Shown piece after piece: positions 1 to 13,166 of a DNA stretch of 13,166 nucleotides. The stretch spans positions 1 through 13,166 of the IMG/VR virus record IMGVR_UViG_3300045988_129298. One strand, given 5' to 3'. Position 1 is the first letter of the stretch. Every line of letters begins with the position of its first letter. This DNA comes from a virus. The position numbers were made by a program, and so were the translations under genes. The notes under the pieces are model-generated. The model did not search any database, had not been told where the DNA came from, and saw only the letters and a program-made list of their open reading frames with translations.

Positions 1-46
1 TCCGATCTAAAGTCCCCCGTCCTCGATAGCAAGCAAGGTGATTTCC

Positions 47-136
47 CACTTTAGCATAGTAAAGTGCTAAAGTGCTAAAACGATAAAGCAAGACAGCAAT
101 GCTTTAGTGTAGTAAAGTGGTAAAGCAGTGAAGTGA
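47..136 (+). repeat. Sub-terminal iteron block in left ITR: 8-bp-phased TAAAG(T/C)(G/A)N units plus hairpin-capable inverted repeats
   Basis: Units start at 60, 68, 76, 84 (TAAAGTGC TAAAGTGC TAAAACGA TAAAGCAA) and at 113, 121, 129 (TAAAGTGG TAAAGCAG TGAAGTGA). A 27-nt imperfect direct repeat CTTTAG..TAGTAAAGTG.TAAAG occurs at 49-75 and 102-128 (21/27 identical, 53 bp apart). Inverted repeats: CACTTTAGCA 47-56 / TGCTAAAGTG 65-74, and TAAAGCA 84-90 / TGCTTTA 100-106. Confidence 0.85.
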
Positions 137-197
137 GTGCAAATAAAAAAATAATACCTCTACGCAATAAAGAGCAAAAATATTTAGTTAAATAGAA

Positions 198-226
198 TTA
201 ACAAATACATAAAAGAAAAATATAAT
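198..226 (+). promoter_or_regulatory. Candidate sigma-A/sigma-70-type promoter P1 in left ITR, pointing inward
   Basis: TTAACA (198-203), 17-nt spacer, TATAAT (221-226). The surrounding sequence is AT-rich. Confidence 0.5.
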
Positions 227-242
227 GTTTACAATTTATTCA

Positions 243-271
243 TTGACATATCCCTTGTAGTGTGGTATACT
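243..271 (+). promoter_or_regulatory. Candidate strong sigma-A/sigma-70-type promoter P2 in left ITR, pointing inward
   Basis: Consensus TTGACA (243-248), 17-nt spacer containing an extended -10 TG (263-264), and TATACT (266-271). It lies about 90 nt upstream of the ATG at 362. Confidence 0.7.
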
Positions 272-328
272 ATATATAGAGTTAAGGGAAAGGAATAAAG
301 AGAAAACCTTAACAAACAAAATTTTAAA

Positions 329-346
329 AGTTGCAACGTTGCAACT
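329..346. repeat. 18-bp perfect palindrome AGTTGCAACGTTGCAACT (left ITR copy)
   Basis: Exact match. It lies between promoter P2 and the RBS, and ends 15 nt before the ATG at 362. Confidence 0.98.
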
Positions 347-361
347 AGAAAGGAAAATACC

Positions 362-679
362 ATGAAAATTAGAGGTATAGAAGTAAAAGGGATTAAGGAA
401 ACTGTTGGCAAATATAATAGAATACCAATTAGTGAGCGAAAGTCTTTTAACATATGGTTTGATAATATAACTAAAAAAGTTATGTTAATAAGAAACGATA
501 TTTGCGAGCAAACTGGTATGAAAACGGAGCAATACACCGATAACTATTTAGATATATCTTTTTTAAGATATGATGATATAAGCGACTTGATTATTTATGA
601 GTATCCTTACTTTGATTATGTATATACAAATATTTCAATGGCAATGCTTGAGGCTGTAATTGCTACTTATATACTATAA
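362..679 (+). CDS. Hypothetical 105-aa protein, the only plus-strand gene; possible AbrB/SpoVT-like N-terminal DNA-binding domain
   Basis: The ORF follows the ITR promoter, palindrome and RBS (GAAAGGA about 8 nt upstream) and is followed by a terminator. The N-terminal stretch VGKYNRIPISERKSFNI...KKVMLI loosely resembles the AbrB swapped-hairpin pattern (GRVVIPIELRRTLGI...KIIL), recalled from memory. The C-terminus is acidic and Tyr-rich. Confidence 0.6.
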   Translation: MKIRGIEVKGIKETVGKYNRIPISERKSFNIWFDNITKKVMLIRNDICEQTGMKTEQYTDNYLDISFLRYDDISDLIIYEYPYFDYVYTNISMAMLEAVIATYIL

Positions 680-686
680 AAAATAA

Positions 687-709
687 CCCCGTGAGAAACA
701 CTCACGGGG
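687..709. terminator. Bidirectional rho-independent terminator between convergent genes
   Basis: 9-bp GC-rich stem CCCCGTGAG (687-695) / CTCACGGGG (701-709) with a 5-nt loop. It is followed by TATTTTA on the plus strand and by TTATTTTTT on the minus strand (complement of 678-686). It sits between the stop codons at 677-679 and 715-717. Confidence 0.85.
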
Positions 710-714
710 CTATT

Positions 715-1806
715 TTATGCTCTTATGCTTATAGCGTGCTTGCTTTGTGCGTTTATCCAGTTTCTAACAATTTCACCTACTGAGTTATCAGCATAGAACA
801 CACGATTAAATGTTATTAAATTATTAATAAGTTTATGAACATCTGTTGGTTGTTCTGCAAGTGATTGAACGTGTAATGGATTTATATCTGCATTAAAATC
901 ATATACAACTCTATTTTTTAAGTCAAGGTTTTCTGTCTTTGTTTGAATGTTAAAAAATAGAAATACAGTGTTTTCATAATGCACAATATTGCAAGCAATA
1001 ACGTCATTGTCAAAGAATATATAAGCCCTATATACAATATTTTCATTTCTAATCTTACATGGGGCGTGCGGATAGTTTTTAATTTCCCACTGCCCCGTGG
1101 TTATCATTTTCAATTGTGGGTTATCAAAAGCGAAATATTTACTAACTTTTCCAGTTTGTCCCCTACTGTCTGAATATTCCAAAGCTAACGTTAATTCACT
1201 GTCACCATATGTAAATAATTTCAAGTCACCCTGTTTAATATCTGAAATCTTACCTAAGCCCATTTCGGCAAAGTACGGGCAATACTGGTTTACCGTATTC
1301 GCAATCATGTAAATAATTGTCTTATCCCTATCACGCATAATAGATGATAATAGCTGAGTAAATATAACAAATTCATTATTAAGATAAAAGGAACGGGTCA
1401 TAAATTCATCAAATAGAATATATTTAAAATATCCATTATCTGCACCTTTTGTACGTTCCCACGCATTTAAAGAAAAACACTTGCAAAAACTTTGTTCACA
1501 TTTTTCCTCAGTATCTGTATTATATAGGAAAAATTCCCTATTTTTGTATGTAGTGCTGTTAAACTGACCATTGGATAGTTTTTCAATTAATGCTGAATGT
1601 GGTTTAAACAAATTTTGAATATTTTTTGGCATAATTTCCTCATCATATCTTCTAATATATGCCAATCTAAAATTATTTTTGAAATATCCCTCTACTTCCT
1701 GTTTGCACACTGCGTATGTTTTACCGTTTGAACGCTGTCCTATAATTAAATTGTATAGTGCGTTTAACTTATTAATCTTTTTTAGTGAATAGTATTCATT
1801 TTTCAT
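715..1806 (-). CDS. DNA encapsidation (packaging) ATPase, phi29 gp16-like
   Basis: Walker A IIGQRSNGKT and Walker B-like YILFDEF. As in phi29, it is the last gene of the array, downstream of the structural genes. I prefer the ATG at 1806 (MKNEYY..., GGGAG about 10 nt upstream, 11-nt overlap with the polymerase stop) over the ORF-track start at 1896, which would overlap the polymerase gene by about 100 nt. Confidence 0.8.
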   Translation of the reverse strand: MKNEYYSLKKINKLNALYNLIIGQRSNGKTYAVCKQEVEGYFKNNFRLAYIRRYDEEIMPKNIQNLFKPHSALIEKLSNGQFNSTTYKNREFFLYNTDTEEKCEQSFCKCFSLNAWERTKGADNGYFKYILFDEFMTRSFYLNNEFVIFTQLLSSIMRDRDKTIIYMIANTVNQYCPYFAEMGLGKISDIKQGDLKLFTYGDSELTLALEYSDSRGQTGKVSKYFAFDNPQLKMITTGQWEIKNYPHAPCKIRNENIVYRAYIFFDNDVIACNIVHYENTVFLFFNIQTKTENLDLKNRVVYDFNADINPLHVQSLAEQPTDVHKLINNLITFNRVFYADNSVGEIVRNWINAQSKHAISIRA

Positions 1807-3934
1807 TAAAATCACACTCCCAGAAATTCGTAGCCAATTCTTGGCTTTTCTCAAATAATGTATGCTCTTTTGCACCGCTACCGAAATTTGTACCACACAT
1901 TAAATAATATATGAATTGTTCGGATAGTGCCATGTTATAATCCTGTTCTTCCATGTGTATATAGGTATTTTCTGCCACTTCGGCATAATTTCCCATATAA
2001 TCTTTTAATACAATTTTGTATGGGTCATTAATATATGTTAATGTATTTTTCCCTGTATATTCTTTAGGTATATACATTTCATTGTCAAAAAATTCAAACG
2101 GTTGCAACGTTGCAACTATGTACGGAACGGCACATTTTTTATTCAGCCCTGAAACTGTAATATTAAATTTTCCGTTCTGTTCATACGCATAACGCTTTGC
2201 ACCTAACGTCTTGAATTTTGAATAAACCCCCTCAAAATCCCATACACCTAGAGGTTTTTTAATACCCTTAATTGTTTTAGGTTTAGCCAAATTCAAATTA
2301 ATTTCATAATAACTTAAAGCCTTGTTTATCTCGTCAATACATTTTTTATTATATTCATTTATCCAGTTTTCATATTTTTCATAGTTTAAAAATTTTATAC
2401 TATCTGTATCACAATAAATAGTATCCTCATTAATTTTTAATATACCTTTGAAAAGTTCGTGCCTCGCCCATGCAGTAATCCACACACCCCACTGATAGAC
2501 TAATACCTGTTTTTTATTTTTTATGTAATTTTCTTGTAATGCGTCTGCTATATCCTTTTTTTCTGTATTCCATTCTTTTCCGTCAAAAATAATATTGTCA
2601 TTTACTGGATTTGTTACGCACATTCCGAATAAACTATTCAACATTCCTTTTCCAACTAGATACTCAACTTCTTTGCCTGCTACACCTTTTAATGTTGTTT
2701 TGTCATTGTAAAATTTTAATGCACATTCTATAATCTGCTTAGGCAAATATCCATAACTTGACATATAAAATTTGCCAATTGATAAATGTTCATAGGAATA
2801 AAACTCCTCAAAGTCTTTAAAGTCAATATCTGTAAAATATGTAAATATTCTATCTGCTGATACAATTCGCCCGTTGTCAACTACTGCATTATCACAAACG
2901 GAGCATTTTGAACGTGATAAAATGTGATTACATTTTTTAGCAGTAACGTTAGTTAATTCAACCTCAAAGACACACGGATAATTTTTAATACAGTATCTAA
3001 AATCTTTTAAGTCCTTTATATGGGTTTTTGTAAATGGTTGCATAGGGTACTTTTTTCGTATCATAACGGACGGATAAGAACTTATAAAATCTATACTAGC
3101 AACATTTTCCAATACCATTCCTACATACATATAGTTTGCGTGTGTATACCCACCCATGAATGATTTATGCAATAAACAAAATAAATCCTTATCGACTGGA
3201 GCTATTTTCTTAATTTTTTCTCTGTATTTTGGATAGTATGTGTGTTTTTTAATATAATTTTGGCAATATTTTCTAACATATCCCGTTTTTGTTAAGGGGA
3301 TTTTTGTTATATTATTATCATTTTTTGCCATTTCTTCAAGTATAAAATAGTGTAAAATTTTTACGTCATGTTCGCAATATCCCATTTCTTCATTAGTTAG
3401 CGGAGTTTTCCACGTTCTCAATAGTTTATAATTTAAATCACCTGTTAATTTTTGTATTTTTACGCTTGTCAAGTCTTCTGCGGTTTTAGCTAAACTCATG
3501 CCACTCAGCATTAGACTACATTTCAAATCAAAACAGTCATTCATAGTACACTTAATAGGATGGCGGGCATTTCTTGCAAAAACATCTTTGAACCGCTCAT
3601 GACCGATTAGAAATTGAAATTCATAACCTAAATTGTGAATATATATTATAATTCTTCTGTATTCATTTAATTGTAATATCTCTTTTAATTTATTCAATGT
3701 AAAATCAAAATCTTTCCATGTTCTACCATATACATAATTTCCATTTAGTGCAAACATAAAAATATACATACACGCTCTTTTGTTTTCACCGTCATAAAAA
3801 GAACTGGTTTCAATGTCAAACGCAAAAGGTGCATTGTAATATTCTATAAATTGATTATCCCGTGTACGGGTTGTAACTGTTTGTAAATTACTATTTTTTA
3901 GAATATTAAAATCAAAATCATTTACATTTATCAA
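1796..3934 (-). CDS. Protein-primed family-B DNA polymerase (phi29 gp2-like)
   Basis: ExoI FDIETSS, ExoII HNLGYEFQF, ExoIII YCEHD, motif A DFISSYPS, motif B KGMLNSLFG, ITAWAR, motif C IYCDTDSI and KxY LGAKRYAY. Several of these are near-identical to phi29 polymerase as recalled (ITAWAR, IYCDTDSI, MLNSLYG). The start must be the TTG at 3932-3934, because ExoI lies upstream of the first internal Met. A strong RBS AAAGGGGTG sits 6 nt upstream. Confidence 0.96.
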   Translation of the reverse strand: MINVNDFDFNILKNSNLQTVTTRTRDNQFIEYYNAPFAFDIETSSFYDGENKRACMYIFMFALNGNYVYGRTWKDFDFTLNKLKEILQLNEYRRIIIYIHNLGYEFQFLIGHERFKDVFARNARHPIKCTMNDCFDLKCSLMLSGMSLAKTAEDLTSVKIQKLTGDLNYKLLRTWKTPLTNEEMGYCEHDVKILHYFILEEMAKNDNNITKIPLTKTGYVRKYCQNYIKKHTYYPKYREKIKKIAPVDKDLFCLLHKSFMGGYTHANYMYVGMVLENVASIDFISSYPSVMIRKKYPMQPFTKTHIKDLKDFRYCIKNYPCVFEVELTNVTAKKCNHILSRSKCSVCDNAVVDNGRIVSADRIFTYFTDIDFKDFEEFYSYEHLSIGKFYMSSYGYLPKQIIECALKFYNDKTTLKGVAGKEVEYLVGKGMLNSLFGMCVTNPVNDNIIFDGKEWNTEKKDIADALQENYIKNKKQVLVYQWGVWITAWARHELFKGILKINEDTIYCDTDSIKFLNYEKYENWINEYNKKCIDEINKALSYYEINLNLAKPKTIKGIKKPLGVWDFEGVYSKFKTLGAKRYAYEQNGKFNITVSGLNKKCAVPYIVATLQPFEFFDNEMYIPKEYTGKNTLTYINDPYKIVLKDYMGNYAEVAENTYIHMEEQDYNMALSEQFIYYLMCGTNFGSGAKEHTLFEKSQELATNFWECDFNEK
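2100..2117. repeat. Palindrome copy inside the polymerase gene (GGTTGCAACGTTGCAACT, 17/18, 16-nt core intact)
   Basis: Core GTTGCAACGTTGCAAC at 2101-2116. It is read on the minus strand as codons for VATLQP, about 290 nt upstream of the ATPase start. Confidence 0.95.
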
Positions 3935-3956
3935 CTATTACACCCCTTTAAAAAAT

Positions 3957-3974
3957 AGTTGCAACGTTGCAACT
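3957..3974. repeat. 18-bp perfect palindrome (junction of the 183-aa gene and the polymerase gene)
   Basis: Exact match. It overlaps the TAG stop (3973-3975) of the upstream gene and ends 22 nt before the polymerase TTG start. On the minus strand it is followed by ATTTTTT. Confidence 0.98.
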
Positions 3975-4524
3975 ATTTTAATGTCTGCAAAAAATTTCTC
4001 ATTAAGTCGGTCATATCACTTTCAGTTTTTGCAGATTTTTCAAGCGTATCTAACACCGCATTAATTTCATCATCATTAAACCCTTTTGTCACCATATCAC
4101 GCACAAATTGTTGAGCGTAATCACTATTAGACAACTGCCCTAAAATTGCATTATCACCATAAAATTCCAGTACACGTTCTACAGTTTCATCTTCAATTTC
4201 CAATCGCAAAGCGTGTTTGTGTATAATTTTTTTCGTGTCAGCCACACTCGTTTGTTGCCCTAAAAACTGTCTAATCTGTACATAATGTTTTAATAACTCT
4301 GCACGATTTTCGCCTTTTGTTCCAGTTTTAAAAAAATTCTTTTTAGTCGAAAATTTGTTCTCTTTTAGAAAAGTGTTCCATTTAGCCATGATTATAGGGT
4401 TTTTCTTGTAATATCCACTTTTTTTCAATTGGCTGAGGCGTAAATTTGCTTTACGCCCTTGCCTTAAAATTTCCGCTTTTAATTGTTCATTTGTTAGACC
4501 ACTTGCAAAATGTTCATTCATCAT
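3973..4524 (-). CDS. Putative terminal protein (183 aa)
   Basis: It sits immediately upstream of the protein-primed polymerase gene, as gp3 does in phi29. The basic N-terminal segment AEILRQGRKANLRLSQLKKSGY resembles phi29 TP AEYARLVKNTKAKIARTKKKYG (from memory), and the C-terminus is acidic. The start overlaps the upstream stop (ATGA at 4521-4524). The function is inferred, not demonstrated. Confidence 0.45.
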   Translation of the reverse strand: MMNEHFASGLTNEQLKAEILRQGRKANLRLSQLKKSGYYKKNPIIMAKWNTFLKENKFSTKKNFFKTGTKGENRAELLKHYVQIRQFLGQQTSVADTKKIIHKHALRLEIEDETVERVLEFYGDNAILGQLSNSDYAQQFVRDMVTKGFNDDEINAVLDTLEKSAKTESDMTDLMRNFLQTLK

Positions 4525-6608
4525 ACAAATACACCGCCTTGTAACATATTTACTATATACCGTCTTTCACTGTCTGTACATCTGAAATTAATTTCAGGGT
4601 TGCTGACAACTGTAAAACCCTTAAAATCTGATAGTTTACCAGTTTTTTCACACGCAAAACCAATCGTTCGCCCGTAATTATCAGGCACATTTAAAATAGG
4701 GCGGTCAATAATGAAATAGCATTTTTGCGGTTGCCATGTTGCAACAGACGGCGAACTTGCACTAGCTTCTTGGTAATTAGTACCAGTCGCAAAACCGCTG
4801 TATAATTTTTCTACATTGCTAACCATTCCGCCGATATTTTTACTAACAATTGACGTTACACCGCCTATCGCACCGCTAACTACATTGCCAATAACTGTAT
4901 TAGCATAACTTGTACTATCGTTTCCAGTCATTGGAATAGATACACCTACTACTCCATTTCTGTAAATAAATGGTATATCATCTTTGAAAACTATTGCAGT
5001 ACCTGCACCCGTGGTATAGTCAACTATCATTTTAACTGATATTCTGTGTCCCATAAATTCAGCGGTTGAAACTGGTACAACACCAATATATGGAATGTAT
5101 ATTTGTGCTGTTGTGTATGGTTCATAATCTAGGAAATTTTTGAATTTAGTGAAAAATGTACATTCACCTAAATCAATTAAACTGTTTACATTTTCGGTCA
5201 GTTTAATACCGTTTACCCCTGTGTTTGTTCTGCCTATCACAATGGGTTCTGCCTGCGTTGCTGAATTTTTCAACGCAACGTTAAACGGGAATAACCGTAG
5301 GTCAATAATACCGTTCATGGGGTTTTCACCCATTAACGCTAAACCTTTTACAATTTCTTGAAATTTTCTTTCATCTGCGTTCCACAAAAAATCAGCCAAA
5401 TTTTTTACAGTATTTGCATTAACCGCAAAACTGCGGTTAAAAACATTGACGTTTGACAGCGTAGGTTTATTCAAATCTATTTTGTCGGTGTAGTTGTTAG
5501 GGTCTGTATTGCCTATGCCGTTAAATGGGTTATTTTGCCAGTCTGTCGGAGTATCCCATGTTGTCTGAATTTGTTTCGCATTTTCTGCACCCTCAGAATA
5601 TTTGCCAGTAATTTTTCCGTCATCCGATATAATACCGCAATATATTCCATTTTGGTTTAGATTTTCCTGCTTTGCTAAATTTGCCGAAAATGTATAATAT
5701 GTTCCCATTCTGCTATATAATTTATGAATGTTTTCGATACTATAATCAAAAACAGGTAAATATCCCGTATACACGTCACTATCAATAGCAAAATATGTTT
5801 TATCCCACAAATCGTTATAACCTAAATTTGCATAATAGTAATCATATGTATTAAAATAGTTAATATTCAAATCATCGCACCCATAAATGAAATTATTCAA
5901 AATTGCGTGTTCTTGGTCATAATCACCAAAAAATAATGCACCGTAAATGTCATAATTTTCCGCCATAGAATTTTTTGAATATGTACAAAATGGGATAATA
6001 TTAAAACCTTGACACAATTTGCGGTCATTAAGGTCAGCCCTAAAATAGTAGGGTACTACATACATACCAATAATGTGATGACTGTTTTTGTAATTTTGTT
6101 CAAATGTGATAACGTCAACATCAATTCTATCACTAAATGATGATACATCACCCATAGTAGAATATTCAAATTTGTAAGCTATCACTCGTACCAAAAAAAG
6201 AAAATCTTTTAATTTATACTCAGTGCCGAAATAATATCCTAAACCGCTACTATTATTACTATCATATGCTAGTCTATAGGATGTTGTTACTGACTGGTTA
6301 GCGATTACAGGCCTATTTTGCAATGTGCCTGTAGTGTTTAAACGTCCGAACATAGCACATACACCGCTAGGAGAATTTGTACCAGTTACAAATTCAGATT
6401 GATGTGGTTTACGATACCCACTGCGGACAAAATAATCGTCAGGGGGATTAAAATCGACGGCATAAAAAATTGATTCATCAATGGGATTATTTAGTTGTAA
6501 TTTACCATTATTAACCAAAGTTTCTAATGATTGAGTTGTTTTAATACCACTTAAAAAATCTATGGATATACTGCGATCACTGGAATAAATTTCCTTATTT
6601 AATTTCAT
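4521..6608 (-). CDS. Large tail protein (695 aa) with a tail-knob (phi29 gp9)-like C-terminal part
   Basis: The segment DYEPYTTAQIYIPYIG..., the Gly-rich hydrophobic loop (VSGAIGGVTSIVSKNIGGMVS) and the C-terminal end ...IVNMLQGGVFV resemble the recalled gp9 architecture. The N-terminal ~470 aa are Asn/Tyr/Asp-rich with no recognisable match and could be a receptor-binding part. ATGA overlaps occur at both ends of the gene. Confidence 0.55.
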   Translation of the reverse strand: MKLNKEIYSSDRSISIDFLSGIKTTQSLETLVNNGKLQLNNPIDESIFYAVDFNPPDDYFVRSGYRKPHQSEFVTGTNSPSGVCAMFGRLNTTGTLQNRPVIANQSVTTSYRLAYDSNNSSGLGYYFGTEYKLKDFLFLVRVIAYKFEYSTMGDVSSFSDRIDVDVITFEQNYKNSHHIIGMYVVPYYFRADLNDRKLCQGFNIIPFCTYSKNSMAENYDIYGALFFGDYDQEHAILNNFIYGCDDLNINYFNTYDYYYANLGYNDLWDKTYFAIDSDVYTGYLPVFDYSIENIHKLYSRMGTYYTFSANLAKQENLNQNGIYCGIISDDGKITGKYSEGAENAKQIQTTWDTPTDWQNNPFNGIGNTDPNNYTDKIDLNKPTLSNVNVFNRSFAVNANTVKNLADFLWNADERKFQEIVKGLALMGENPMNGIIDLRLFPFNVALKNSATQAEPIVIGRTNTGVNGIKLTENVNSLIDLGECTFFTKFKNFLDYEPYTTAQIYIPYIGVVPVSTAEFMGHRISVKMIVDYTTGAGTAIVFKDDIPFIYRNGVVGVSIPMTGNDSTSYANTVIGNVVSGAIGGVTSIVSKNIGGMVSNVEKLYSGFATGTNYQEASASSPSVATWQPQKCYFIIDRPILNVPDNYGRTIGFACEKTGKLSDFKGFTVVSNPEINFRCTDSERRYIVNMLQGGVFV

Positions 6609-7105
6609 ATGTTCAGCCCCTCATTCTCTGTTGTTCCCTGATTACTTCCGCCACCTGCTACATTTAATACAAAATTGTAACTATTTACTGTAGCACTATC
6701 TAGGTTAAAATCACCCCCAGTAAACTCAATTACTTTCATTTCCTTGTTACCTTTTAATGGTAACATTGTATCGGGTATATATGTACTGCCGATATTTTCA
6801 TTTCTAGTTATTAGAAATTCGCTAGATAGTAACGTTGTTGAATATGTAAATATATCAAATTCGCACTGTAAAATAATAGTTTCTGCACTCTCAACGTCTG
6901 CCGAAATTATATGATAAAACCTATCAAAAAATGGTATATATGCCATATTGGCATTGAATGTTTCAGACGTACAAAATAATCTTATACGAGGTGCAAAACT
7001 GTTCATAGTATCCAGTATTTCACAATTATACTCTACTGTGTTTGTTAGCGTTTTTGAAATTGTTCTCACGTCCTGTGAACATTGATACGTTGTTATAATT
7101 GGCAT
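6605..7105 (-). CDS. Hypothetical structural protein (166 aa), possibly equivalent to the N-terminal domain of tail-knob proteins
   Basis: It lies between the capsid and tail genes and is translationally coupled to the tail gene (ATGA at 6605-6608). The motif ANMAYIPFFDRFYHIISADVE...LQCEFDIF loosely resembles the phi29 gp9 N-terminus (SYIMFQN..NKWFYAFVTELE...VHFEIDVL) from memory. Confidence 0.35.
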   Translation of the reverse strand: MPIITTYQCSQDVRTISKTLTNTVEYNCEILDTMNSFAPRIRLFCTSETFNANMAYIPFFDRFYHIISADVESAETIILQCEFDIFTYSTTLLSSEFLITRNENIGSTYIPDTMLPLKGNKEMKVIEFTGGDFNLDSATVNSYNFVLNVAGGGSNQGTTENEGLNI

Positions 7106-7124
7106 TTTTTCTCACCTTCAATAT

Positions 7125-7142
7125 AGTTGCAACGTTGCAACT
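7125..7142. repeat. 18-bp perfect palindrome (junction of the capsid gene and the 166-aa gene)
   Basis: Exact match, ending 19 nt before the ATG at 7105. The RBS GAAGGTGAG lies between them. On the plus strand the palindrome runs into a T6 tract (7142-7147). Confidence 0.98.
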
Positions 7143-7149
7143 TTTTTAG

Positions 7150-7166
7150 GGTTGCAACGTTTAACT
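7150..7166. repeat. Partial palindrome copy GGTTGCAACGTTTAACT
   Basis: It contains one intact GTTGCAAC octamer (7151-7158) followed by a degenerate second half. It lies 7 nt from the perfect copy, separated by TTTTTAG. Confidence 0.85.
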
Positions 7167-7176
7167 ATCATTTTTG

Positions 7177-8322
7177 TTATGCTGTTACTGCTGTATCTGC
7201 TACTATGAATACAACACAGTTTTCCATAGTATCGTTGAAATAGCTTGCATCGTACTTATAGAAATAGTTCCAATACTCGCCCTTCGGATTGTAAATACTT
7301 GTAACTCTTGGGTTAGCATTACAAACCATACAAGCATCTCTGTCAAAGATGGTTCCGATAATACCTGTCTGAGATACTGCGTTACCGCTTGCCGTTGTAA
7401 CATTGATTTTTGAAATTTCTGCAAAATCGAACGTTTCGCCCGTTCCGCTACCCTGCCAATAAGGTACTTCTGAATAACCTGTCAGTTTGACGAGGTCATT
7501 ATGAAACGTGTCACTCTGCAAATATACCTCGGCAGTATTTACAAATCTTGACAACAGAACCATTTTCAAGTCACTTTCAGGAGTAAAGGTTGTATAACCG
7601 CCGTCATTGAACAGCATTGACGGACGCTGAATATACTTGATATATTCCTTGATTTTTCCGATTGCATATCTCAGAAAATCCTTGTCCATAAGAGCGTGAC
7701 TTGCTGTCAAAGTCTGAGTAAACTCAGCATTATACATTGTCAAAAGATTAACAACGTTGTTTTTGCTATGTATCTTCTCAGCTATAAGATTATTAACAGT
7801 TCTTGTTTTAAGTATATCATTTGACAAAGTCAGCTTAAATCTGATACGATTTTCAATCATTGCAAAAAAGCTATTCATTTCAGCGGGCGAATTAAATGCA
7901 CTCTTAACCTGCATTTCTGTGAATGACATCTGCACCTCATACGTAACTTTGCTGTCATAGAATTTTGACTGAACGTCAGGTGCAGTAAAAACGAATGGGT
8001 CATAACTCTGTCCGTTTGTCAGTTTCCAACTGTCGTTTTCAACTGCGTCAGGCATTTCGCAACGTACTTTCTGCATTGCCGAACCGTACTCCCAACTATC
8101 TGCTAAAATGTCGGGGGCTGTTGAGTTGTAAACTCTATCCACAAAAATCATTCTACCGACTTTGTCAATCAGCTTGCGAACGTAATTATCAACGTCTGTC
8201 GCCTCAAGTATCTGTTTACCCATGTCAACGACATTTTCAAGATTCTCAGTTGTTACGGCACTCTCACCGATTATCTCCTGCTGTACTTCATTCAAAATTG
8301 TAGCAATTTGTGTAACTTTCAT
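7177..8322 (-). CDS. Major capsid protein (phi29 gp8-like, HK97 fold expected)
   Basis: The C-terminal motif YNPKGEYWNYFYKYDASYFND..NCVVF matches the recalled phi29 gp8 sequence [29 protein letters not shown]. The RBS AGAGAGGTAAA is present, and the start overlaps the upstream stop (TAATG at 8320-8324). Confidence 0.85.
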   Translation of the reverse strand: MKVTQIATILNEVQQEIIGESAVTTENLENVVDMGKQILEATDVDNYVRKLIDKVGRMIFVDRVYNSTAPDILADSWEYGSAMQKVRCEMPDAVENDSWKLTNGQSYDPFVFTAPDVQSKFYDSKVTYEVQMSFTEMQVKSAFNSPAEMNSFFAMIENRIRFKLTLSNDILKTRTVNNLIAEKIHSKNNVVNLLTMYNAEFTQTLTASHALMDKDFLRYAIGKIKEYIKYIQRPSMLFNDGGYTTFTPESDLKMVLLSRFVNTAEVYLQSDTFHNDLVKLTGYSEVPYWQGSGTGETFDFAEISKINVTTASGNAVSQTGIIGTIFDRDACMVCNANPRVTSIYNPKGEYWNYFYKYDASYFNDTMENCVVFIVADTAVTA

Positions 8323-8609
8323 TATAATTTACCTCTCTTTATTTCTTCGCCCTTTAGGCGGTAATATGTGTTTAGTTTCTTTCTCAACGTTCTGTCAATC
8401 CCTTTGAAACATAAAAACTTATCTTTGATAACATTTTCATATTTTAACCAATTTGCAAGGCATAACCAAAACACAAAATCATCACTATATAAAATATAGT
8501 CTTTTAAATCTTCCTTGTTTTGGAGTGTATCTACTACTGCTTTTAATACAACTGCTCTTGCTAGATTGACATAATTTTCAGCAAAAGTTGGACTTCTCAC
8601 TTTTTGCAT
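8322..8609 (-). CDS. Hypothetical 95-aa protein in the position of the phi29 scaffolding protein
   Basis: It lies directly upstream of the capsid gene and is translationally coupled to it. It has a strong RBS AGGAAAGGAGA and a basic C-terminal tail. The sequence gives no functional clue, so the scaffold role rests on synteny only. Confidence 0.3.
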   Translation of the reverse strand: MQKVRSPTFAENYVNLARAVVLKAVVDTLQNKEDLKDYILYSDDFVFWLCLANWLKYENVIKDKFLCFKGIDRTLRKKLNTYYRLKGEEIKRGKL

Positions 8610-8631
8610 TTTTTATTTTTTCTCCTTTCCT

Positions 8632-8649
8632 AGTTGCAACGTTGCAACT
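8632..8649. repeat. 18-bp perfect palindrome (junction of the lower collar gene and the 95-aa gene)
   Basis: Exact match. It abuts the TAA stop (8650-8652) of the upstream gene, is followed directly by the RBS AGGAAAGGAGA, and ends 22 nt before the ATG at 8609. Confidence 0.98.
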
Positions 8650-9327
8650 TTAGTATACGCCGATTAGAATTATATCGGCTATAGCTTTCGCAAATAAATC
8701 AACTACAGAAAACATTGCTAACTTTCTTTCGCTTTCAATCATCTGCTGTGACGTTGTAACTCCTATATTACCACTTCTTGTAAATTCATGCACAGTTTTT
8801 TCATTTCCTGCCGTGGTAACTGTAGTGTTTATATCCTGCGTATCTGTATTAGTTCCCGTGTTAGTAGTTTTTGTATCATTGATAAAACTATCAGACTTGT
8901 CAAAAGTTGTCTTTCCAGTTGTAATTGACGTGTCAACACCTACAGTATTTGTATTTACGCCTTTGTTTGTCTGTGTAATATTTGGAGTTCTTGTGTCCGT
9001 TCCCTTCTCGGTCATGGAATAGTTTTCAATGGGATTATATTCCAATGATAGAGTATCAACTAACTTGTCATATTCGTACTTGTGGGATTTACCATATAAT
9101 GCTATATAGTCGCTTGCCTGTTTTACCTTATTTGTATTACTTGTGACATTTTCGCTATCATAATACTTGTAAAAATCACGCTCTCCGTACTTATCCGCAA
9201 AATAGTAGAACATTTCAGCTGATGTAAAAATTGTAAATATTTTCAAGTCTGCTGATACCTTATCAAAAATAGTCTGTATAGTGGGGAATAGTTCCACCCA
9301 TTTATTTAGCGTTATTATCTTCCGCAT
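8650..9327 (-). CDS. Putative lower collar protein (225 aa)
   Basis: It lies immediately downstream of the portal/upper collar gene, as gp11 does in phi29, with a 26-nt overlap and the RBS GAGGTGG. It contains a Thr/Asn-rich low-complexity middle region and a GNIGVTTSQQMIESE motif. The assignment rests mainly on synteny. Confidence 0.45.
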   Translation of the reverse strand: MRKIITLNKWVELFPTIQTIFDKVSADLKIFTIFTSAEMFYYFADKYGERDFYKYYDSENVTSNTNKVKQASDYIALYGKSHKYEYDKLVDTLSLEYNPIENYSMTEKGTDTRTPNITQTNKGVNTNTVGVDTSITTGKTTFDKSDSFINDTKTTNTGTNTDTQDINTTVTTAGNEKTVHEFTRSGNIGVTTSQQMIESERKLAMFSVVDLFAKAIADIILIGVY

Positions 9328-10261
9328 TGTTTTCCACCTCTTCCTCTGTAGGTTCTTCCTCTGTAGGACTTTCCTCAGTTTTTACCAGGTCTTTCCATTC
9401 CTCAGAAATTTTAACAGAAATACCTACCCCAAACATAGCATTAATTTTGTCGACTGCCTGCTGCCGGTTATTCAGCATATTAACAACATTCACAAATAAT
9501 GCACTATCATTAATATTAACTTCTGCTATATTTAGCCGTTCTCGTTTCATGTTAAAATTTGCATTTACTCCGATTGAATTGTAAAAATTTGCAAGCCAAA
9601 ATTGATACGTTTCAACCGTCTGCTGTAGAATTGTAGCTACACTTGTATTATCTGCCATTTTGATTGGCGAAATACAATTCAAAATTGTATCATCAATCAT
9701 AACAGCAGGATTGCCATTATATAACTGTTTTAAAACTTTTTCCCCTGCAATTCTCACCGTATCGTCTTTGCACAGAAACGCTGTTTGAACTCTGCCGTTT
9801 TTCAAAGCACTGGAAATTGTTACCACGCAATCAGCTAACATATTCGCCGTTAGTGTTAGTATAGGATACAAACCGCCTGTCATTCCTTTCAATGGGTATT
9901 TATCCGTATCACTGTTAAACATTACTACTCCGTCAATATCCAGTTTTACATTTTTATTTCCTAGAATTGGATTAGCCACAACAAATTCAGTCGGTAAATA
10001 ATACTCATTAGGATAACCACCATAATTTCCGTTTAGTGCATATAGTTTTTCATTAAATTCAGTAAAAACAACTCTTCCTGTAACAAATAACCAAAAATTC
10101 ATTATCTGTTCATCAATGGTTTCTGGCAGGTTCTCCCATGTAAACATATTGATAACACGATTTAGCAACATTTTGTAATAGTAATTTGTTAATTGTGTTT
10201 TGTCTATGTTTGAGACTCCGAACTCGCTCCACTCCCATGAACTCCCTTTTTTTGAACCCAT
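9302..10261 (-). CDS. Portal / upper collar connector protein (phi29 gp10-like)
   Basis: MFTWENLPETIDEQ... matches the recalled phi29 gp10 sequence LFEWENLPPTINPS, and GVNANFNMKRERLNIAEV matches GIKNANLEKKERMVTDEV. I prefer the ATG at 10261 (MGSKKG...). The ORF-track GTG at 10273 lies inside the RBS AAAGGGGTGA. The acidic C-terminal tail carries a PTEEE duplication. Confidence 0.9.
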   Translation of the reverse strand: MGSKKGSSWEWSEFGVSNIDKTQLTNYYYKMLLNRVINMFTWENLPETIDEQIMNFWLFVTGRVVFTEFNEKLYALNGNYGGYPNEYYLPTEFVVANPILGNKNVKLDIDGVVMFNSDTDKYPLKGMTGGLYPILTLTANMLADCVVTISSALKNGRVQTAFLCKDDTVRIAGEKVLKQLYNGNPAVMIDDTILNCISPIKMADNTSVATILQQTVETYQFWLANFYNSIGVNANFNMKRERLNIAEVNINDSALFVNVVNMLNNRQQAVDKINAMFGVGISVKISEEWKDLVKTEESPTEEEPTEEEVENNAEDNNAK

Positions 10262-10285
10262 TTTTTCTTTCACCCCTTTTCAATC

Positions 10286-10303
10286 GGTTGCAACGTGGCA
10301 ACT
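10286..10303. repeat. Degenerate palindrome copy GGTTGCAACGTGGCAACT (16/18), upstream of the portal gene
   Basis: Two mismatches to the consensus. It ends 24 nt before the ATG at 10261, and on the plus strand it runs into a T8 tract (10303-10310). Confidence 0.9.
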
Positions 10304-10321
10304 TTTTTTTATTGCCACGTT
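10292..10321. other. 10-bp inverted repeat AACGTGGCAA / TTGCCACGTT with a 10-nt T-rich spacer, overlapping the degenerate palindrome
   Basis: Arms at 10292-10301 and 10312-10321 are exact reverse complements. The T-to-G variant of the palindrome is mirrored in the second arm. Confidence 0.9.
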
Positions 10322-10336
10322 TTGCCGATTTGCTGT

Positions 10337-10675
10337 TTACTGTATCTGAATTGAATAAAATTCACCGTTAGTTGACTTGCCTTTTACAAATCTTACCTTT
10401 ACCTCTTCACCTGTGTTCAAGCACTCGTTGAGAATGTCTGCCAACTCTTCCATGTGGTCAAGACAAACCTTTGACGAGAACCCAAAAACTCCGATGTCTG
10501 TTGCGATATAGCCAATGTCGCAAGGTTTCTTGTCCCTGTCAAGTCCACCATTTTCTACCACTGCACACCCTGAAACGGTGTGAAACTCTTCTGCACCTGC
10601 TGTCTTGATTGAAATACTTCCGCTCTTAGCGTTAAAGATGTCCTTCTTGCTCATGTTAACATTGAAACTGTTCAT
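10337..10675 (-). CDS. Hypothetical 112-aa protein (stand-alone cistron between two palindrome sites)
   Basis: Clean ORF with the RBS GGGAAGAGG, and visibly more GC-rich than neighbouring genes. I recognise no motif. A role as an abundant SSB or DNA-binding replication protein is speculation only. Confidence 0.55.
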   Translation of the reverse strand: MNSFNVNMSKKDIFNAKSGSISIKTAGAEEFHTVSGCAVVENGGLDRDKKPCDIGYIATDIGVFGFSSKVCLDHMEELADILNECLNTGEEVKVRFVKGKSTNGEFYSIQIQ

Positions 10676-10784
10676 GTTTAATACCTCTTCCCATGTTTTT
10701 TTGTAATTTGTTCAATATTATGTGACCGTAATATATAATAGTTATGCACGTTAGATAACAATAGCGGTTTAGCACTCTTATAAA

Positions 10785-10802
10785 AGTTGCAACGTTGCAA
10801 CT
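10785..10802. repeat. 18-bp perfect palindrome (intergenic region between the endolysin gene and the 112-aa gene)
   Basis: Exact match. Unlike the other copies, it lies 109 nt upstream of the next start (10675). On the minus strand it is followed by TTTATAAG. Confidence 0.98.
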
Positions 10803-10867
10803 GTAAAATTTTTAATTATTATCAATTTGCTGTTGTATTGTTAAATGCTCACATAACGTATTATCCG

Positions 10868-11536
10868 TTAAAAATTAACTATTTTGTCAAGAATAGCATT
10901 ATAAAGGGCATTAATTAACTTTACCCCTGCTATTCCGTTTTCTTTATACTTTAGCTTTTGCAAAATTTCATTTGTAGCTTTTTCAGTACCCTTGCCATAA
11001 ATACCGTTAAAATCAACATCTGTACTGATTATTTTACAAGTCTTTGCCAATTTTAACATCATTTTATAAGCGTAAACACCTTCATTGTTATCCCCACGTT
11101 TCAGTCCCTTAGTATCAAGAGCATTACCTTTATATCTCAAAACACCCAGGAAATTAGTGTAATTGTGTTTTTCTTTTGCTACAAATTTGTGACCGTTGTA
11201 ATTTTGGTCATAACTGTAAAAATACCTTGTATTTCCCTCACCCGTGGCTATTGAGATATGCCCGATATTGTCAGCCGACTTAAAAATACAAATATCACCT
11301 TGCATTGGTACAAAATCGGGAGTATTTGCAATTTTTGTAAAATTCTTTACAAGAGCCGATACCTCTTTGAAACGTGTAAAATACTGTTGGGCGTTGAAAT
11401 TGTATGGATAGTATGTAAAAATGTTAAAACATTTTTGCATATAGTCATTTACAAGGTCACAACACTGATAGGGATAAACCCCGTCAAACTCGATTGATTT
11501 TCCTAGGGTTTTAGAAATATATTCCTTAAATGTCAT
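10868..11536 (-). CDS. Endolysin: N-terminal CHAP amidase/peptidase domain plus C-terminal PG_binding_1-like domain
   Basis: The catalytic-Cys motif FDGVYPYQCCDLVNDY and the His motif NIGHISIA are typical of phage CHAP lysins such as the LysK type. The C-terminal LKRGDNNEGVYAYKMML...NGIYGKGTEKATNEILQK...NGIAG fits the peptidoglycan-binding repeat pattern. The start overlaps the upstream stop (ATGA at 11533-11536). Confidence 0.85.
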   Translation of the reverse strand: MTFKEYISKTLGKSIEFDGVYPYQCCDLVNDYMQKCFNIFTYYPYNFNAQQYFTRFKEVSALVKNFTKIANTPDFVPMQGDICIFKSADNIGHISIATGEGNTRYFYSYDQNYNGHKFVAKEKHNYTNFLGVLRYKGNALDTKGLKRGDNNEGVYAYKMMLKLAKTCKIISTDVDFNGIYGKGTEKATNEILQKLKYKENGIAGVKLINALYNAILDKIVNF

Positions 11537-11742
11537 TTTTCTTTTACCTCTAAATCTGTTAATCTGTGGTTAATTACTTTTATTTGCTCTTCTACTACTG
11601 GTAATCTCCTTGCAAAGTTGTTATGCTCTGCCACTCGTTTTTCCAACTGTTGAACCCTATATTCTGTCAGCTTAAACCCTGAGTAACTACCGATAAATGT
11701 ACCTATCAAGGATAACATCGCAACTATTATCGTACTCCACAT
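11533..11742 (-). CDS. Single-pass membrane protein with coiled-coil tail (holin-associated, BhlA/XhlA-like architecture)
   Basis: An N-terminal TM segment WSTIIVAMLSLIGTFIGSYSGF is followed by a charged helical region LEKRVAEHNN...INHRLTDLE. The gene is sandwiched by overlaps between a 2-TM ORF and the endolysin gene. Confidence 0.5.
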   Translation of the reverse strand: MWSTIIVAMLSLIGTFIGSYSGFKLTEYRVQQLEKRVAEHNNFARRLPVVEEQIKVINHRLTDLEVKEK

Positions 11743-11903
11743 TAAACTTTACCATTTTTTGAAAATTGAGTGCCAAAATAGAACGCTATTACAGTTGTAA
11801 AAACTGTCATATACTGCTCACTTGTTATCTTTCCTGCAAGTGATAGCAGACAAAACACAATCGTTAGTAGGATTGTTACGATTGATTTTATTGTTATCTT
11901 CAT
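11742..11903 (-). CDS. Small 2-TM membrane protein (53 aa), holin candidate; absent from the supplied ORF track
   Basis: Hand translation of the minus strand gives MKITIKSIVTILLTIVFCLLSLAGKITSEQYMTVFTTVIAFYFGTQFSKNGKV. The RBS GGAAGGTGA lies 5 nt upstream. The stop overlaps the next start (TAATG at 11740-11744). There are two hydrophobic segments and a basic C-terminus. Confidence 0.6.
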   Translation of the reverse strand: MKITIKSIVTILLTIVFCLLSLAGKITSEQYMTVFTTVIAFYFGTQFSKNGKV

Positions 11904-11928
11904 ATCTTCACCTTCCTATATGCCATGT

Positions 11929-12126
11929 TTACTCACCTTTTATACGTCTGTAAATTGCTTCCCCTGTTCCAAAGTCAACTTTTACAAGTTCTGGGATTTT
12001 GGCACCCTCTGCATAAAATGTGGGGTTTACATTCAAGGGTACCAGATGACTTCTTTCACATTGCTTAGCTTCGTACTCATCATCAAATATTTTGTTGCAC
12101 CATTCACAAGCAAAAAGTCTTTTCAT
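11929..12126 (-). CDS. Small zinc-finger-like protein (65 aa)
   Basis: FACEWCNKIFDDEYEAKQCERSH has the spacing F-x-C-x2-C-x3-F-x8-C-x3-H, which is the classical beta-beta-alpha zinc-finger spacing with Cys in place of the first His. The RBS AGGCAGG is upstream. Confidence 0.5.
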   Translation of the reverse strand: MKRLFACEWCNKIFDDEYEAKQCERSHLVPLNVNPTFYAEGAKIPELVKVDFGTGEAIYRRIKGE

Positions 12127-12148
12127 TTCTGTTTACCTGCCTTTCTAT

Positions 12149-12175
12149 CACACTGAGTAATTAATACTCAGTGTG
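12149..12175. other. 11-bp stem / 5-nt loop inverted repeat spanning the stop codon of the 214-aa gene
   Basis: CACACTGAGTA (12149-12159) and TACTCAGTGTG (12165-12175) are exact reverse complements. The TAA stop (12161-12163) lies in the loop. No T-run follows on the sense (minus) strand. Confidence 0.85.
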
Positions 12176-12805
12176 CTTTGTTGTAACATCAAAAGTTATG
12201 TCAATATTTTCAAGGTTTTCTCTTTTTTCCATAAGTGCATTTACCCATATTGACAAATCTTTAAGAGTTGCAAAGTGCTGTGTTCCTCTTGGTGCTTCCT
12301 CTTCCTTGGTTGTAACGTTGCAACTTTCAGCGGTTGTTACTTCCTCTTCCTGTTCCTCTGTTTCCTCTGTATCGTCTTTCATTTCAAGAGCCTTTGTGCT
12401 GTTGACAAATTCTCTCAGCTGTTTTATAGTCATGTCGGGTGTAATATTGCCGTTTTCAATAATTTCATTATCAAGGGTTACAAGGGTGGCAAGCTGATTG
12501 AATGTAAACATTTCAGCGTTAAGCGGTGAATTAATATCAGTTATGAACTTGTCGGAAACTCTTCTCATACGGCTTGCCGTTGACTTTGTGATGTTAAACA
12601 TTGTCATTGTGTAGTCACCAAAATCACCGAAATCGTCTTTCCATGTACCTTTGTTGTATATCTCCGCAAGGTCTGTACAGATAGCTTTCTTGTTATCCTC
12701 TACATTTACCATTCTTGTAAAGATACGCTGAGTGCTTTCTTTAAGAGCATTGCTCTTAAATGTGTTCATGATGTTTGTGCTTTCTGATTTAATAATGTTC
12801 TCCAT
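12161..12805 (-). CDS. Putative helix-turn-helix DNA-binding protein (214 aa), first gene of the minus-strand array
   Basis: The segment TWKDDFGDFGDYTMTMFNITKSTASRMRRVSDKF...FTFNQLATLVTL...ITPDMTIKQLREFV resembles ParB/KorB- or DUF3102-type HTH modules (from memory). An acidic linker TEETEEQEEE is present. The start codon is the last triplet of the right ITR. Confidence 0.4.
   Translation of the reverse strand: MENIIKSESTNIMNTFKSNALKESTQRIFTRMVNVEDNKKAICTDLAEIYNKGTWKDDFGDFGDYTMTMFNITKSTASRMRRVSDKFITDINSPLNAEMFTFNQLATLVTLDNEIIENGNITPDMTIKQLREFVNSTKALEMKDDTEETEEQEEEVTTAESCNVTTKEEEAPRGTQHFATLKDLSIWVNALMEKRENLENIDITFDVTTKHTEY
12308..12325. repeat. Degenerate palindrome copy GGTTGTAACGTTGCAACT (16/18) inside the 214-aa gene
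   Basis: Two mismatches to the consensus. It is read on the minus strand as codons for ESCNVTT. Confidence 0.85.
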
Positions 12806-12820
12806 GGTATTTTCCTTTCT

Positions 12821-12838
12821 AGTTGCAACGTTGCAACT
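12821..12838. repeat. 18-bp perfect palindrome (right ITR copy)
   Basis: Exact match, mirror of 329-346. It ends 15 nt before the ATG at 12805. Confidence 0.98.
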
Positions 12839-12895
12839 TTTAAAATTTTGTTTGTTAAGGTTTTCTCTTTATTCCTTTCCCTTAACTCTATATAT

Positions 12896-12924
12896 AGTAT
12901 ACCACACTACAAGGGATATGTCAA
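12896..12924 (-). promoter_or_regulatory. Right-ITR copy of promoter P2, pointing inward into the minus-strand gene array
   Basis: Exact mirror of 243-271, upstream of the 214-aa gene start at 12805. Confidence 0.7.
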
Positions 12925-12940
12925 TGAATAAATTGTAAAC

Positions 12941-12969
12941 ATTATATTTTTCTTTTATGTATTTGTTAA
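12941..12969 (-). promoter_or_regulatory. Right-ITR copy of promoter P1
   Basis: Exact mirror of 198-226. Confidence 0.5.
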
Positions 12970-13030
12970 TTCTATTTAACTAAATATTTTTGCTCTTTAT
13001 TGCGTAGAGGTATTATTTTTTTATTTGCAC

Positions 13031-13120
13031 TCACTTCACTGCTTTACCACTTTACTACACTAAAGCATTGCTGTCTTGCTTTATCGTTTTAGCACTTTAG
13101 CACTTTACTATGCTAAAGTG
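13031..13120 (-). repeat. Sub-terminal iteron block in right ITR (mirror of 47-136)
   Basis: Mirror image of the left block, because the ITRs are perfect. Confidence 0.85.
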
Positions 13121-13166
13121 GGAAATCACCTTGCTTGCTATCGAGGACGGGGGACTTTAGATCGGA

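Follow-up and report, generated by a model that had tools for sequence, protein, structure and literature searches.

A repeated 16-bp palindrome in a 13-kb phi29-like phage genome and a 214-aa early protein as its candidate reader

The viral record IMGVR_UViG_3300045988_129298 was analysed from position 1 to position 13,166, and this whole stretch is called the window here. It is a complete linear phi29-like genome of 13,166 bp, which encodes a phi29-type major capsid protein (MCP), a connector, a gp16 packaging ATPase, and a protein-primed family B polymerase. The minus strand is the coding strand for all but one of its genes (16 open reading frames, ORFs), and its ends form a perfect inverted terminal repeat (ITR) of 364 bp. 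Each ITR holds two tandem sigma70-type promoters, the only strong promoters of this type in the window, followed by a palindrome, a ribosome-binding site (RBS), and an ATG. Because promoters, 5' leader, RBS, and ATG all lie inside the perfect repeat, the two terminal genes, which encode proteins of 105 and 214 amino acids (aa), begin with identical expression signals. The palindrome, whose 16-bp unit is GTTGCAACGTTGCAAC, recurs about ten times along the genome, and it is the subject of our study together with the 214-aa protein, its candidate reader. A megablast comparison of the window with GenBank phages gave no match, and no integrase or lysogeny module was found in the window.

A preliminary description of this DNA had reported an 18-bp palindrome, AGTTGCAACGTTGCAACT, read as two tandem GTTGCAAC octamers and said to mark nearly every boundary between gene modules. 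The coordinates given for its copies all hold, and our count returned the same six exact 18-mers, one copy with a single mismatch, and two copies with two mismatches (Table 1); the weak copy (4729) and the partial one (7150) were confirmed as well. These nine matches compare with 0.01 expected and were reached in none of 200 shuffles, so that the motif is not equally frequent in shuffled sequence, the check that had been proposed; the octamer occurs 18 times versus 0.23 expected. Among the roughly ten sites, two are located downstream of the ITR promoters, five in short intergenic gaps, and three in coding sequence. Six copies end 16-25 nt ahead of a start codon, directly 5' of the Shine-Dalgarno (SD) sequence and 2-9 nt before it, close to the 15-24 nt of the earlier account. 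Since both ITR promoters are 5' of the palindrome, the ITR copies fall in the 5' leaders, about 50 nt past the promoter and 15 nt before the ATGs of the 105-aa and 214-aa genes. The assignment to module boundaries holds in part: many copies are found at junctions, but those at 2100, 4729, and 12308 lie inside genes and are conserved there. In addition, seven non-overlapping minus-strand junctions were counted instead of the six described, and the 25-nt gap at 11904-11928 has no site. The resemblance to punctuation is probably incidental, short intergenic gaps being almost the sole free space in such compact genomes.

Special attention was given to the conservation of each site in 18 relatives of about 85% identity, which were found via the motif itself and the capsid protein and aligned across each site. 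In these alignments, the conserved unit is the 16-mer and not the 18-mer initially proposed, whose outer A/T is not fixed. Essentially no change is seen in the 16-mer of the ITRs, 2100, 3957, 7125, 8632, and 12308, while its flanks show substitutions and indels. The copy inside the polymerase gene (2100) is kept in all 18 relatives, with only two single changes. For the three coding copies taken together (2100, 4729, and 12308), third-codon positions are variable in 3 of 15 cases inside the 16-mer and in 84 of 120 in the flanks (p=2.6e-4). It follows from this constraint and from the invariance that selection acts on the nucleotide sequence of the sites, which also occur away from module boundaries, and the sequence comparison indicates that the three coding copies are under such selection. 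The copy at 10785, a recent gain, corresponds to an insertion of about 20 bp that none of the 18 relatives has; on the minus strand, a weak promoter-like site (10844..10815) immediately precedes it. One relative lacks the copy at 8632. The copy at 3957 forms the core of a 28-bp perfect palindrome, AAAATAGTTGCAACGTTGCAACTATTTT (3952-3979), and it is the only one that resembles a bidirectional terminator (-16 kcal/mol in context).

A capsid-profile search provided about 65 further phi29-like genomes of 11-13 kb with 43-63% capsid identity, and 69 genomes, designated here by L numbers, were compared. One repeated palindrome is found per lineage: the canonical bacterial parS, ATGTTTCACGTGAAACAT, in some of them and a private palindrome in others (Table 1). 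The parS copies are located in ITRs, beside terminators, and directly 5' of RBSs. The closest outgroup (L165-167) shares 62% capsid identity and a one-directional gene order with the window. One or two perfect parS sites lie there exactly between the stop codon of the MCP gene and the RBS of the gene that follows, at the junction occupied in the window by 7125/7150. Positions match between window sites and the parS sites of relatives at the MCP/next-gene junction, in the ITRs, and at RBS-proximal junctions. The sequences themselves are different, as the window contains no match to the parS consensus TGTTNCACGTGAAACA within 3 mismatches, and only the 16-bp dyad and the central CG are common to both. 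The preliminary description knew of nothing comparable in phi29-like phages, a statement that has to be qualified, as phi29 has five parS sites that work through the host protein Spo0J (PMC2731898). The simplest account of the tight placement before RBSs is that non-coding space is scarce, and true DNA sites are placed likewise.

The private palindromes differ even between phages of one metagenome. Those of L177, L179, L196, and L197 form no RNA hairpin (0 to -1 kcal/mol); therefore, the common denominator is sequence-specific recognition of duplex DNA and not structure. In L210 and L215, the motif sits upstream of the -35 element and only beside the ITR promoter, as an operator would. The motif of L177 and L196 is a 12-bp near-palindrome with an asymmetric centre (TCAA/TTGA), whose 21 and 15 copies mostly run along the local coding strand. 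Canonical parS was also observed immediately beside a private TTCCACGYRCGTGGAA (L231 7717-7746, L232 4671-4700, and L227 ~6545-6575), so that some genomes have both kinds of site at one junction. Six genomes (L163, L168, L169, L186, L204, and L211) show AACGTT 3-5 times over-represented, with 19 occurrences versus 4.3 expected in L163; this excess is not explained by any single long motif.

To identify a reader, each of the 16 window proteins was searched with jackhmmer against the ORFs of the 69 genomes. The family of the 214-aa protein is the only one of the 16 that tracks the private palindromes, being present in 9 of the 12 genomes that have them versus 1 of the other 57 (p=4e-8); the single exception, L215, shares the operator of L210. 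The family is found in none of 14 parS genomes. The preliminary description had left three explanations standing without choosing among them, and the comparative evidence now favours the first, a multi-copy operator for a phage-encoded protein, with only one of its four named candidates in agreement with the distribution. In a capsid (MCP) tree, the lineages with this family are interspersed with parS lineages, and the association between family and palindrome has therefore arisen several times. An independent test of the prediction was offered by L231 (an NCBI assembly) and L232, which encode family members: in both, the private TTCCACGYRCGTGGAA occurs 6-8 times, mostly directly 5' of the SD, and one copy in each abuts a canonical parS.

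The 214-aa protein is composed of an all-helical N-terminal domain, an acidic linker, and a small C-terminal domain. A segment resembling a helix-turn-helix (HTH; residues ~62-92), FNITKSTASRMRRVSDKF, is invariant in the clade of the window and different between lineages with different motifs. The family comprises at least 669 representatives at E<=1e-3 (50% identity clusters). Searches of Pfam, NCBIfam, and PHROGs gave nothing for the protein beyond a marginal DUF3102 and an NR label, DUF3102 being uncharacterised in the literature searched; ParB-family domains were absent from the protein and its relatives in the same databases. No match to a ParA-type ATPase was found among the 16 window ORFs, though the host may supply a ParA.

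Based on these results, we propose, with a probability of roughly 60%, that the 16-mer is a multi-copy double-stranded DNA site for a dimer of the 214-aa early protein, in a private system that resembles parS and stoperators and includes autoregulation at the ITRs. The enrichment and sequence constraint of the palindrome, its positional equivalence with parS, and the exclusive association of private palindromes with this family are direct observations. Binding of DNA by the 214-aa protein, as a dimer, is what we infer from the sequences, and the consequences of binding are drawn by analogy. Under this proposal, the palindrome and the protein would be the lineage-private counterpart of the host parS/ParB handle used by sister phages and phi29, and the protein would nucleate on sites spaced every 1-2 kb along the linear genome. 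In each ITR, the copy is preceded by the only strong promoters and followed by the first RBS, on one side that of the binder's own gene; negative autoregulation of this gene and of the 105-aa gene is predicted from this position. Those internal copies that head blocks of translationally coupled genes could reduce read-through as stoperator-like roadblocks to transcription. Given the exchangeability with host parS, the complex may also keep the genome silent or correctly positioned in a dormant host or a carrier state, by analogy with phi29 parS/Spo0J.

It is important to consider that several findings weigh against this proposal. The p-values for co-occurrence ignore phylogeny. Three genomes (L227, L183, and L195) have private motifs with no family gene detected, though their contigs may be incomplete. 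No Pfam HTH domain was found in the 214-aa protein, with only a marginal DUF3102 hit in one relative; sequence and profile searches found no PDB match for it, the best being the centromere-binding protein AspA at a non-significant E=0.26; and its AlphaFold models are poor (pLDDT 53 and 45). With the SD spacing of 0-10 nt seen in several lineages, a translational operator would fit as well, and variation restricted to sense-strand G.U pairs at two sites points to selection at the RNA level there. Finally, several copies of the 16-mer also occur in unrelated phages and mobile elements, where no 214-aa homologue was found. The last two subjects are treated below.

Table 1. Features of the window and distribution of repeated palindromes in other genomes and elements.
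Feature	Position in the window, or genomes	Strand	Remarks
Left ITR	1..364		Two tandem sigma70-type promoters, palindrome, RBS, and ATG of 105-aa gene; promoter scan
Left ITR promoters	198-226 and 243-271	+	Promoter scan
Palindrome, left ITR 5' leader	329..346		Exact 18-mer; 15 nt before ATG at 362
Bidirectional terminator	687-709		Terminator scan
Palindrome in DNA polymerase gene	2100..2117		16-mer intact; 1 mismatch in 18-mer
Palindrome between 183-aa gene and polymerase gene	3957..3974		Exact 18-mer
Degenerate coding copy in 695-aa gene	4729..4746		14/18; GGTTGCCACGTTGCAAC here in most relatives
Composite RNA hairpin at MCP junction	7123..7168	- (sense)	Arm 7151-7161 pairs with first 11 nt of site; 6-bp outer helix; -20.8 kcal/mol
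Palindrome at junction of MCP stop codon and next gene's RBS	7125..7142		Exact 18-mer
Palindrome between 225-aa and 95-aa genes, directly 5' of RBS	8632..8649		Exact 18-mer
Composite RNA hairpin before connector gene	10282..10330	- (sense)	Arm 10311-10321 pairs with variant site; outer helix; -24.2 kcal/mol
Variant palindrome GGTTGCAACGTGGCAACT directly 5' of connector gene RBS	10286..10303		2 mismatches
Palindrome restricted to this genome	10785..10802		Exact 18-mer; 110 nt from next start codon
Gene of 214-aa early protein, candidate binder	12161..12805	-	First gene downstream of right ITR promoter
Palindrome in 214-aa gene, within hypervariable acidic linker	12308..12325		2 mismatches; perfect 18-mer in most relatives
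Right ITR	12803..13166		Promoters mirrored from left ITR
Palindrome, right ITR, 5' leader of 214-aa gene	12821..12838		Exact 18-mer
Right ITR promoters	12896-12924 and 12941-12969	-	Promoter scan
Canonical bacterial parS	~14-18 genomes including L172, L173, L175, L180-185, L189, L190		3-5 copies
Private TTCCGTTTAAACGGAA	L205, L174		6 copies
Private TTAGTCRACTAA	L177		21 copies
Private CTAGTCAACTAG	L196		15 copies
Private GTAGTCAACTAC	L197		5 copies
Private CTAATCAATTAG	L179		4 copies
Private TTTCAAACGTTTGAAA	L163		3-4 copies
Private TTGTGCAATTTGCACAA	L210, L215		3-4 copies; only beside ITR promoter
Palindrome in unrelated IMG/VR contigs	L024, L037, L003		47-49% GC; up to 28 octamers in 12.5 kb; large terminase subunit
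Palindrome in unrelated IMG/VR contig	L011		43% GC
Palindrome in unrelated IMG/VR contig	L030		62% GC; octamers spaced 10 apart
16-mer in mobilisable/conjugative elements	L057 (Treponema sp. MAG113 contig), L054, L095 (Erysipelotrichaceae MAG)		Relaxase, coupling protein, recombinase, topoisomerase, HicAB

The second explanation in the preliminary description was that the motif acts in RNA, as a hairpin with a 7-bp stem and an ACGU loop that would stabilise the 5' end of each cistron block or mark it for processing. In the wider form considered here, the hairpin, directly 5' of the RBS, could also stabilise 3' ends or control translation as an operator; its reader would be an RNA-binding protein, which might be the 214-aa protein itself. 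The isolated 18-mer does fold (-7.2 kcal/mol, z=-3.9), and the position of six copies shortly ahead of an SD would suit such a role, as would the bias of 30:13 in favour of the coding strand that the asymmetric private motifs of sister lineages show. Support from sequence variation is found only at the composite sites 7125/7150 and 10286/10311, where an upstream partial copy, the first 11 nt of the site, and an outer helix make up a 17-bp interrupted hairpin (-21 and -24 kcal/mol, respectively) that is located immediately after the stop codon of the MCP gene or of the 112-aa gene. Across 19 genomes, the two helices are 99-100% paired on the sense strand, with 32+4 G.U cells and one UA<->GC change, versus 89.5% on the antisense strand. 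In the 10286 helix, eight pairs vary, almost only as sense-strand G.U wobbles (99.1% pairing with 32 G.U cells, versus 34 broken cells on the antisense strand); this pattern would arise by chance with a probability of about 0.04 by a rough estimate, and the underlying events are not phylogenetically independent. The 7125 helix shows the UA<->GC double change and one CG->UG. All of the variation in both helices occurs in the upstream arm, and the arm formed by the 16-mer is fixed. It follows that pairing in the sense RNA is selected there, while the 16-mer is under a separate sequence constraint. There is thus moderate evidence, from the alignments, for an RNA layer at 7125 and 10286, where the composite hairpins are perhaps mRNA end stabilisers or processing sites.

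As a general explanation, a role in RNA fails because sister lineages have, at the same junctions, either parS, which is a DNA site, or private motifs that form no stable hairpin. Moreover, the simple copies show no covariation, their invariance is not required by pure structure, and single-position variants of the local hairpin lack any sense-strand G.U bias; the motif upstream of -35 in L210/L215 does not fit either. The stems of 7-9 bp at simple sites compare with about 20 bp of double-stranded RNA expected for an RNase III-type processing hairpin, and a 7-bp stem is too short for this enzyme. Rfam contains no family matching at the palindrome, at the gathering or the E-value threshold. We therefore consider it unlikely that the motif acts in RNA throughout, and the proposed DNA site for the 214-aa protein is retained, with the two composite hairpins superimposed on it.

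The third explanation was that the palindromes insulate against antisense transcription; as intrinsic terminators or insulators, they would stop plus-strand transcription, for example read-through from the left ITR promoter. Its only basis is the T-runs that come after 7125, 10286, and 12821 on the plus strand, and also after 8632 in relatives. Our terminator scan lists 7125 and 10286 on this strand; in a Treponema-binned element, the 16-mer lies between A- and T-runs and once between convergent genes. These runs can equally be read as A-rich sense-strand flanks or as hairpin loops, since the A-runs double as loops on the sense strand. The total of 11 terminator-like sites in the scan is not significant with respect to shuffles (6.6±3.1), and the stems are weak, with 3 G-C pairs; on the sense strand, U-rich tails are found only at 3957 and 10785. 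Terminators need neither identical sequences nor copies inside genes, and this explanation also leaves the invariant sequence, the association with the 214-aa family, and the equivalence with parS unaccounted for. It is, in our opinion, highly improbable.

The palindrome is not restricted to relatives of the window. Multiple copies of the exact 18-mer, most of them intergenic, are found in contigs that resemble the window neither in DNA nor in protein sequence. In five of these contigs, which belong to small tailed phages (L024, L037, L003, L011, and L030), GTTGCAAC(0-2 nt)GTTGCAAC stands ahead of most genes, often 1-25 nt from the start and with no obvious SD, and the octamer spacings of the unrelated groups are 8, 9, or 10. 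In the mobile elements L057, L054, and L095, the 16-mer is flanked by A- and T-runs, and it is located once between convergent genes and once over a promoter-like -35. No protein common to the window and the unrelated carriers was found by tblastn, family HMMs, or a search with the recognition-helix string. The occurrence of the 16-mer in unrelated elements could be due to convergence, to an unrelated reader of the same specificity, or to a shared host factor.

The last of these possibilities can be extended to the window: the sites would be read by a host protein, such as a ParB paralogue or another conserved host transcription factor, and the 214-aa protein would do something else. Sister lineages clearly exploit a host protein via canonical parS (PMC2731898). 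The identical 16-mer in multi-copy in unrelated phages of 43-62% GC (L024, L037, L011, and L030), and in Treponema- and Erysipelotrichaceae-binned elements where no 214-aa homologue was found, is in line with a host reader, as is its overlap with the promoter-like -35 element in L095. By contrast, private palindromes differ within one metagenome and follow the presence of the 214-aa family, and nothing parS-like occurs in the window within the 3 mismatches allowed. In a scan of bacterial genomes, the multi-copy matches to the 16-mer correspond to mobile elements; no many-copy chromosome is present among the matches listed, the others of which are mostly single and at about chance level. A host reader is quite unlikely in our assessment, and the 214-aa protein remains the preferred candidate.

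A further observation on this motif concerns Streptococcus parasanguinis (L041 1977-2305; also L084 and L133), where about eight different palindromes are arrayed between an XRE-type gene and an integrase gene next to rpsD. They share the centre CAACGTTG, (C)AACGTT(G), their outer arms covary, and many have A- and T-run flanks; GTTGCAACGTTGCAAC is one member. Within the window, the ITR also contains repeats of the TAAAGTGC type with an 8-nt period at 60-88 and 113-133, and a 24-nt repeat (49-72 and 102-125). These repeats may be bound by origin or terminal proteins, and the outgroup genome L165 has 13 occurrences of a similar word, TAAAGTGCTAA. Where the 65-aa gene adjoins, a hairpin with an 11-bp stem that is unrelated to the palindrome (12149-12175) overlaps the stop codon of the 214-aa gene and has a T-rich tail on the plus (antisense) strand. 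No pRNA was matched by Rfam in the window at either of the thresholds used, despite the phi29-type gp16 packaging ATPase that is encoded there.

The phi29-like phages are a textbook system, and the sole use of a repeated palindrome known to us in them is the parS/Spo0J spore entrapment in Bacillus. Our study identified canonical parS as common in uncultured phi29-like relatives of 11-13 kb from gut- or rumen-type metagenomes, and other lineages as having swapped it for private palindromes that go together with an uncharacterised phage gene. If the proposed pairing is correct, these genes would encode a new family of proteins that recognise specific DNA sequences and whose specificities have been reprogrammed in nature; a recognition code and orthogonal parts could be obtained from it. 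It would also explain the regulation or parking of a 13-kb genome that has a single strong promoter at each end, and would suggest that dormancy or carrier strategies are widespread in the smallest tailed phages. A broader and rather doubtful idea is that the 214-aa family is a swappable 'genome handle' that has repeatedly replaced host ParB/parS in tiny protein-primed phages, re-tuned in each lineage and serving a hidden dormant or carrier lifestyle. Phages supposed to be strictly lytic would then silence or segregate their linear genomes independently of the host, and the 16-mer in unrelated phages and conjugative elements would suggest a shared reader or cross-talk between mobile elements.

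Repeated palindromes that bind proteins on phage genomes are known, as in phi29 parS, cluster A stoperators, KorB, and N15. The 16-mer and TGCAACGTTGCA appear in no paper of the literature searched, matches to GTTGCAAC together with 'phage' are incidental, and a 2024 review of more than 2000 phi29-like genomes makes no mention of such palindromes. Among known operators compared by eye (cre/CcpA, the LacI family with PurR, Cra, and CytR, sigma54 -24/-12, LexA, Noc NBS, and RacA ram), none fits in register, and these comparisons are leads only. The metbox operators of MetJ are tandem 8-bp palindromes (AGACGTCT), and the head-to-tail 8-bp palindromes of the window have formally the same architecture. 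A MetJ-like ribbon-helix-helix reading was rejected, since no protein of this type was identified and relatives have private motifs that are not built of tandem octamers. The resemblance, and with it the reading as tandem octamers in the preliminary description, is probably incidental.

The intercistronic RNase III hairpins of T7 and the PeSL cassettes of T4-type phages are stem-loops that recur at the boundaries of gene blocks, the T7 sites differing in sequence. The two composite sites of the window are similar to them, as 17-bp irregular hairpins right after stop codons; however, the sequence of the window is invariant and extends to coding copies, and its place is taken by DNA sites in sister lineages. 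The KorB/OB operators of RK2 and the dispersed SopB centromere sites of prophage N15 are also comparable: a palindrome repeated across a replicon, in promoter or intergenic regions, that serves both global gene regulation and partition. Their binders are true ParB-family proteins with ParA partners, neither of which is detectable in the window.

The stoperators of cluster A mycobacteriophages, bound by a repressor of the L5 gp71 type, also consist of many identical sites for one phage protein, at promoters and in short intergenic spaces at the heads of genes (PMC9283540), an arrangement in which the binder is, for the window, a prediction. The asymmetric motifs of L196 and L177, with their 15-21 copies mostly oriented along transcription, are similar to them. 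Stoperators are, however, asymmetric 13-bp sites bound by a monomer in temperate phages (PMC9283540), whereas the window has about ten copies of a perfect palindrome, no integrase or known lysogeny, and a candidate binder of an unrelated protein family. A further parallel is provided by phi29 and Nf, small protein-primed podoviruses with several copies of one 16-bp palindrome, parS; in phi29 there are five, and host Spo0J is reported to help trap the genome in spores (PMC2731898, citing Meijer et al. 2005). Sister lineages of the window have this very parS at the same junctions and in the ITRs. The palindrome of the window is different from parS, no ParA is encoded, and the putative reader is a phage protein without a detectable ParB CTPase or HTH. 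What appears to be new with respect to the literature searched, as judged from the sequences compared here, is a phage-private palindrome that is paired with a still uncharacterised family of proteins and is interchangeable, among sister lineages of very small phi29-like phages, with host parS.

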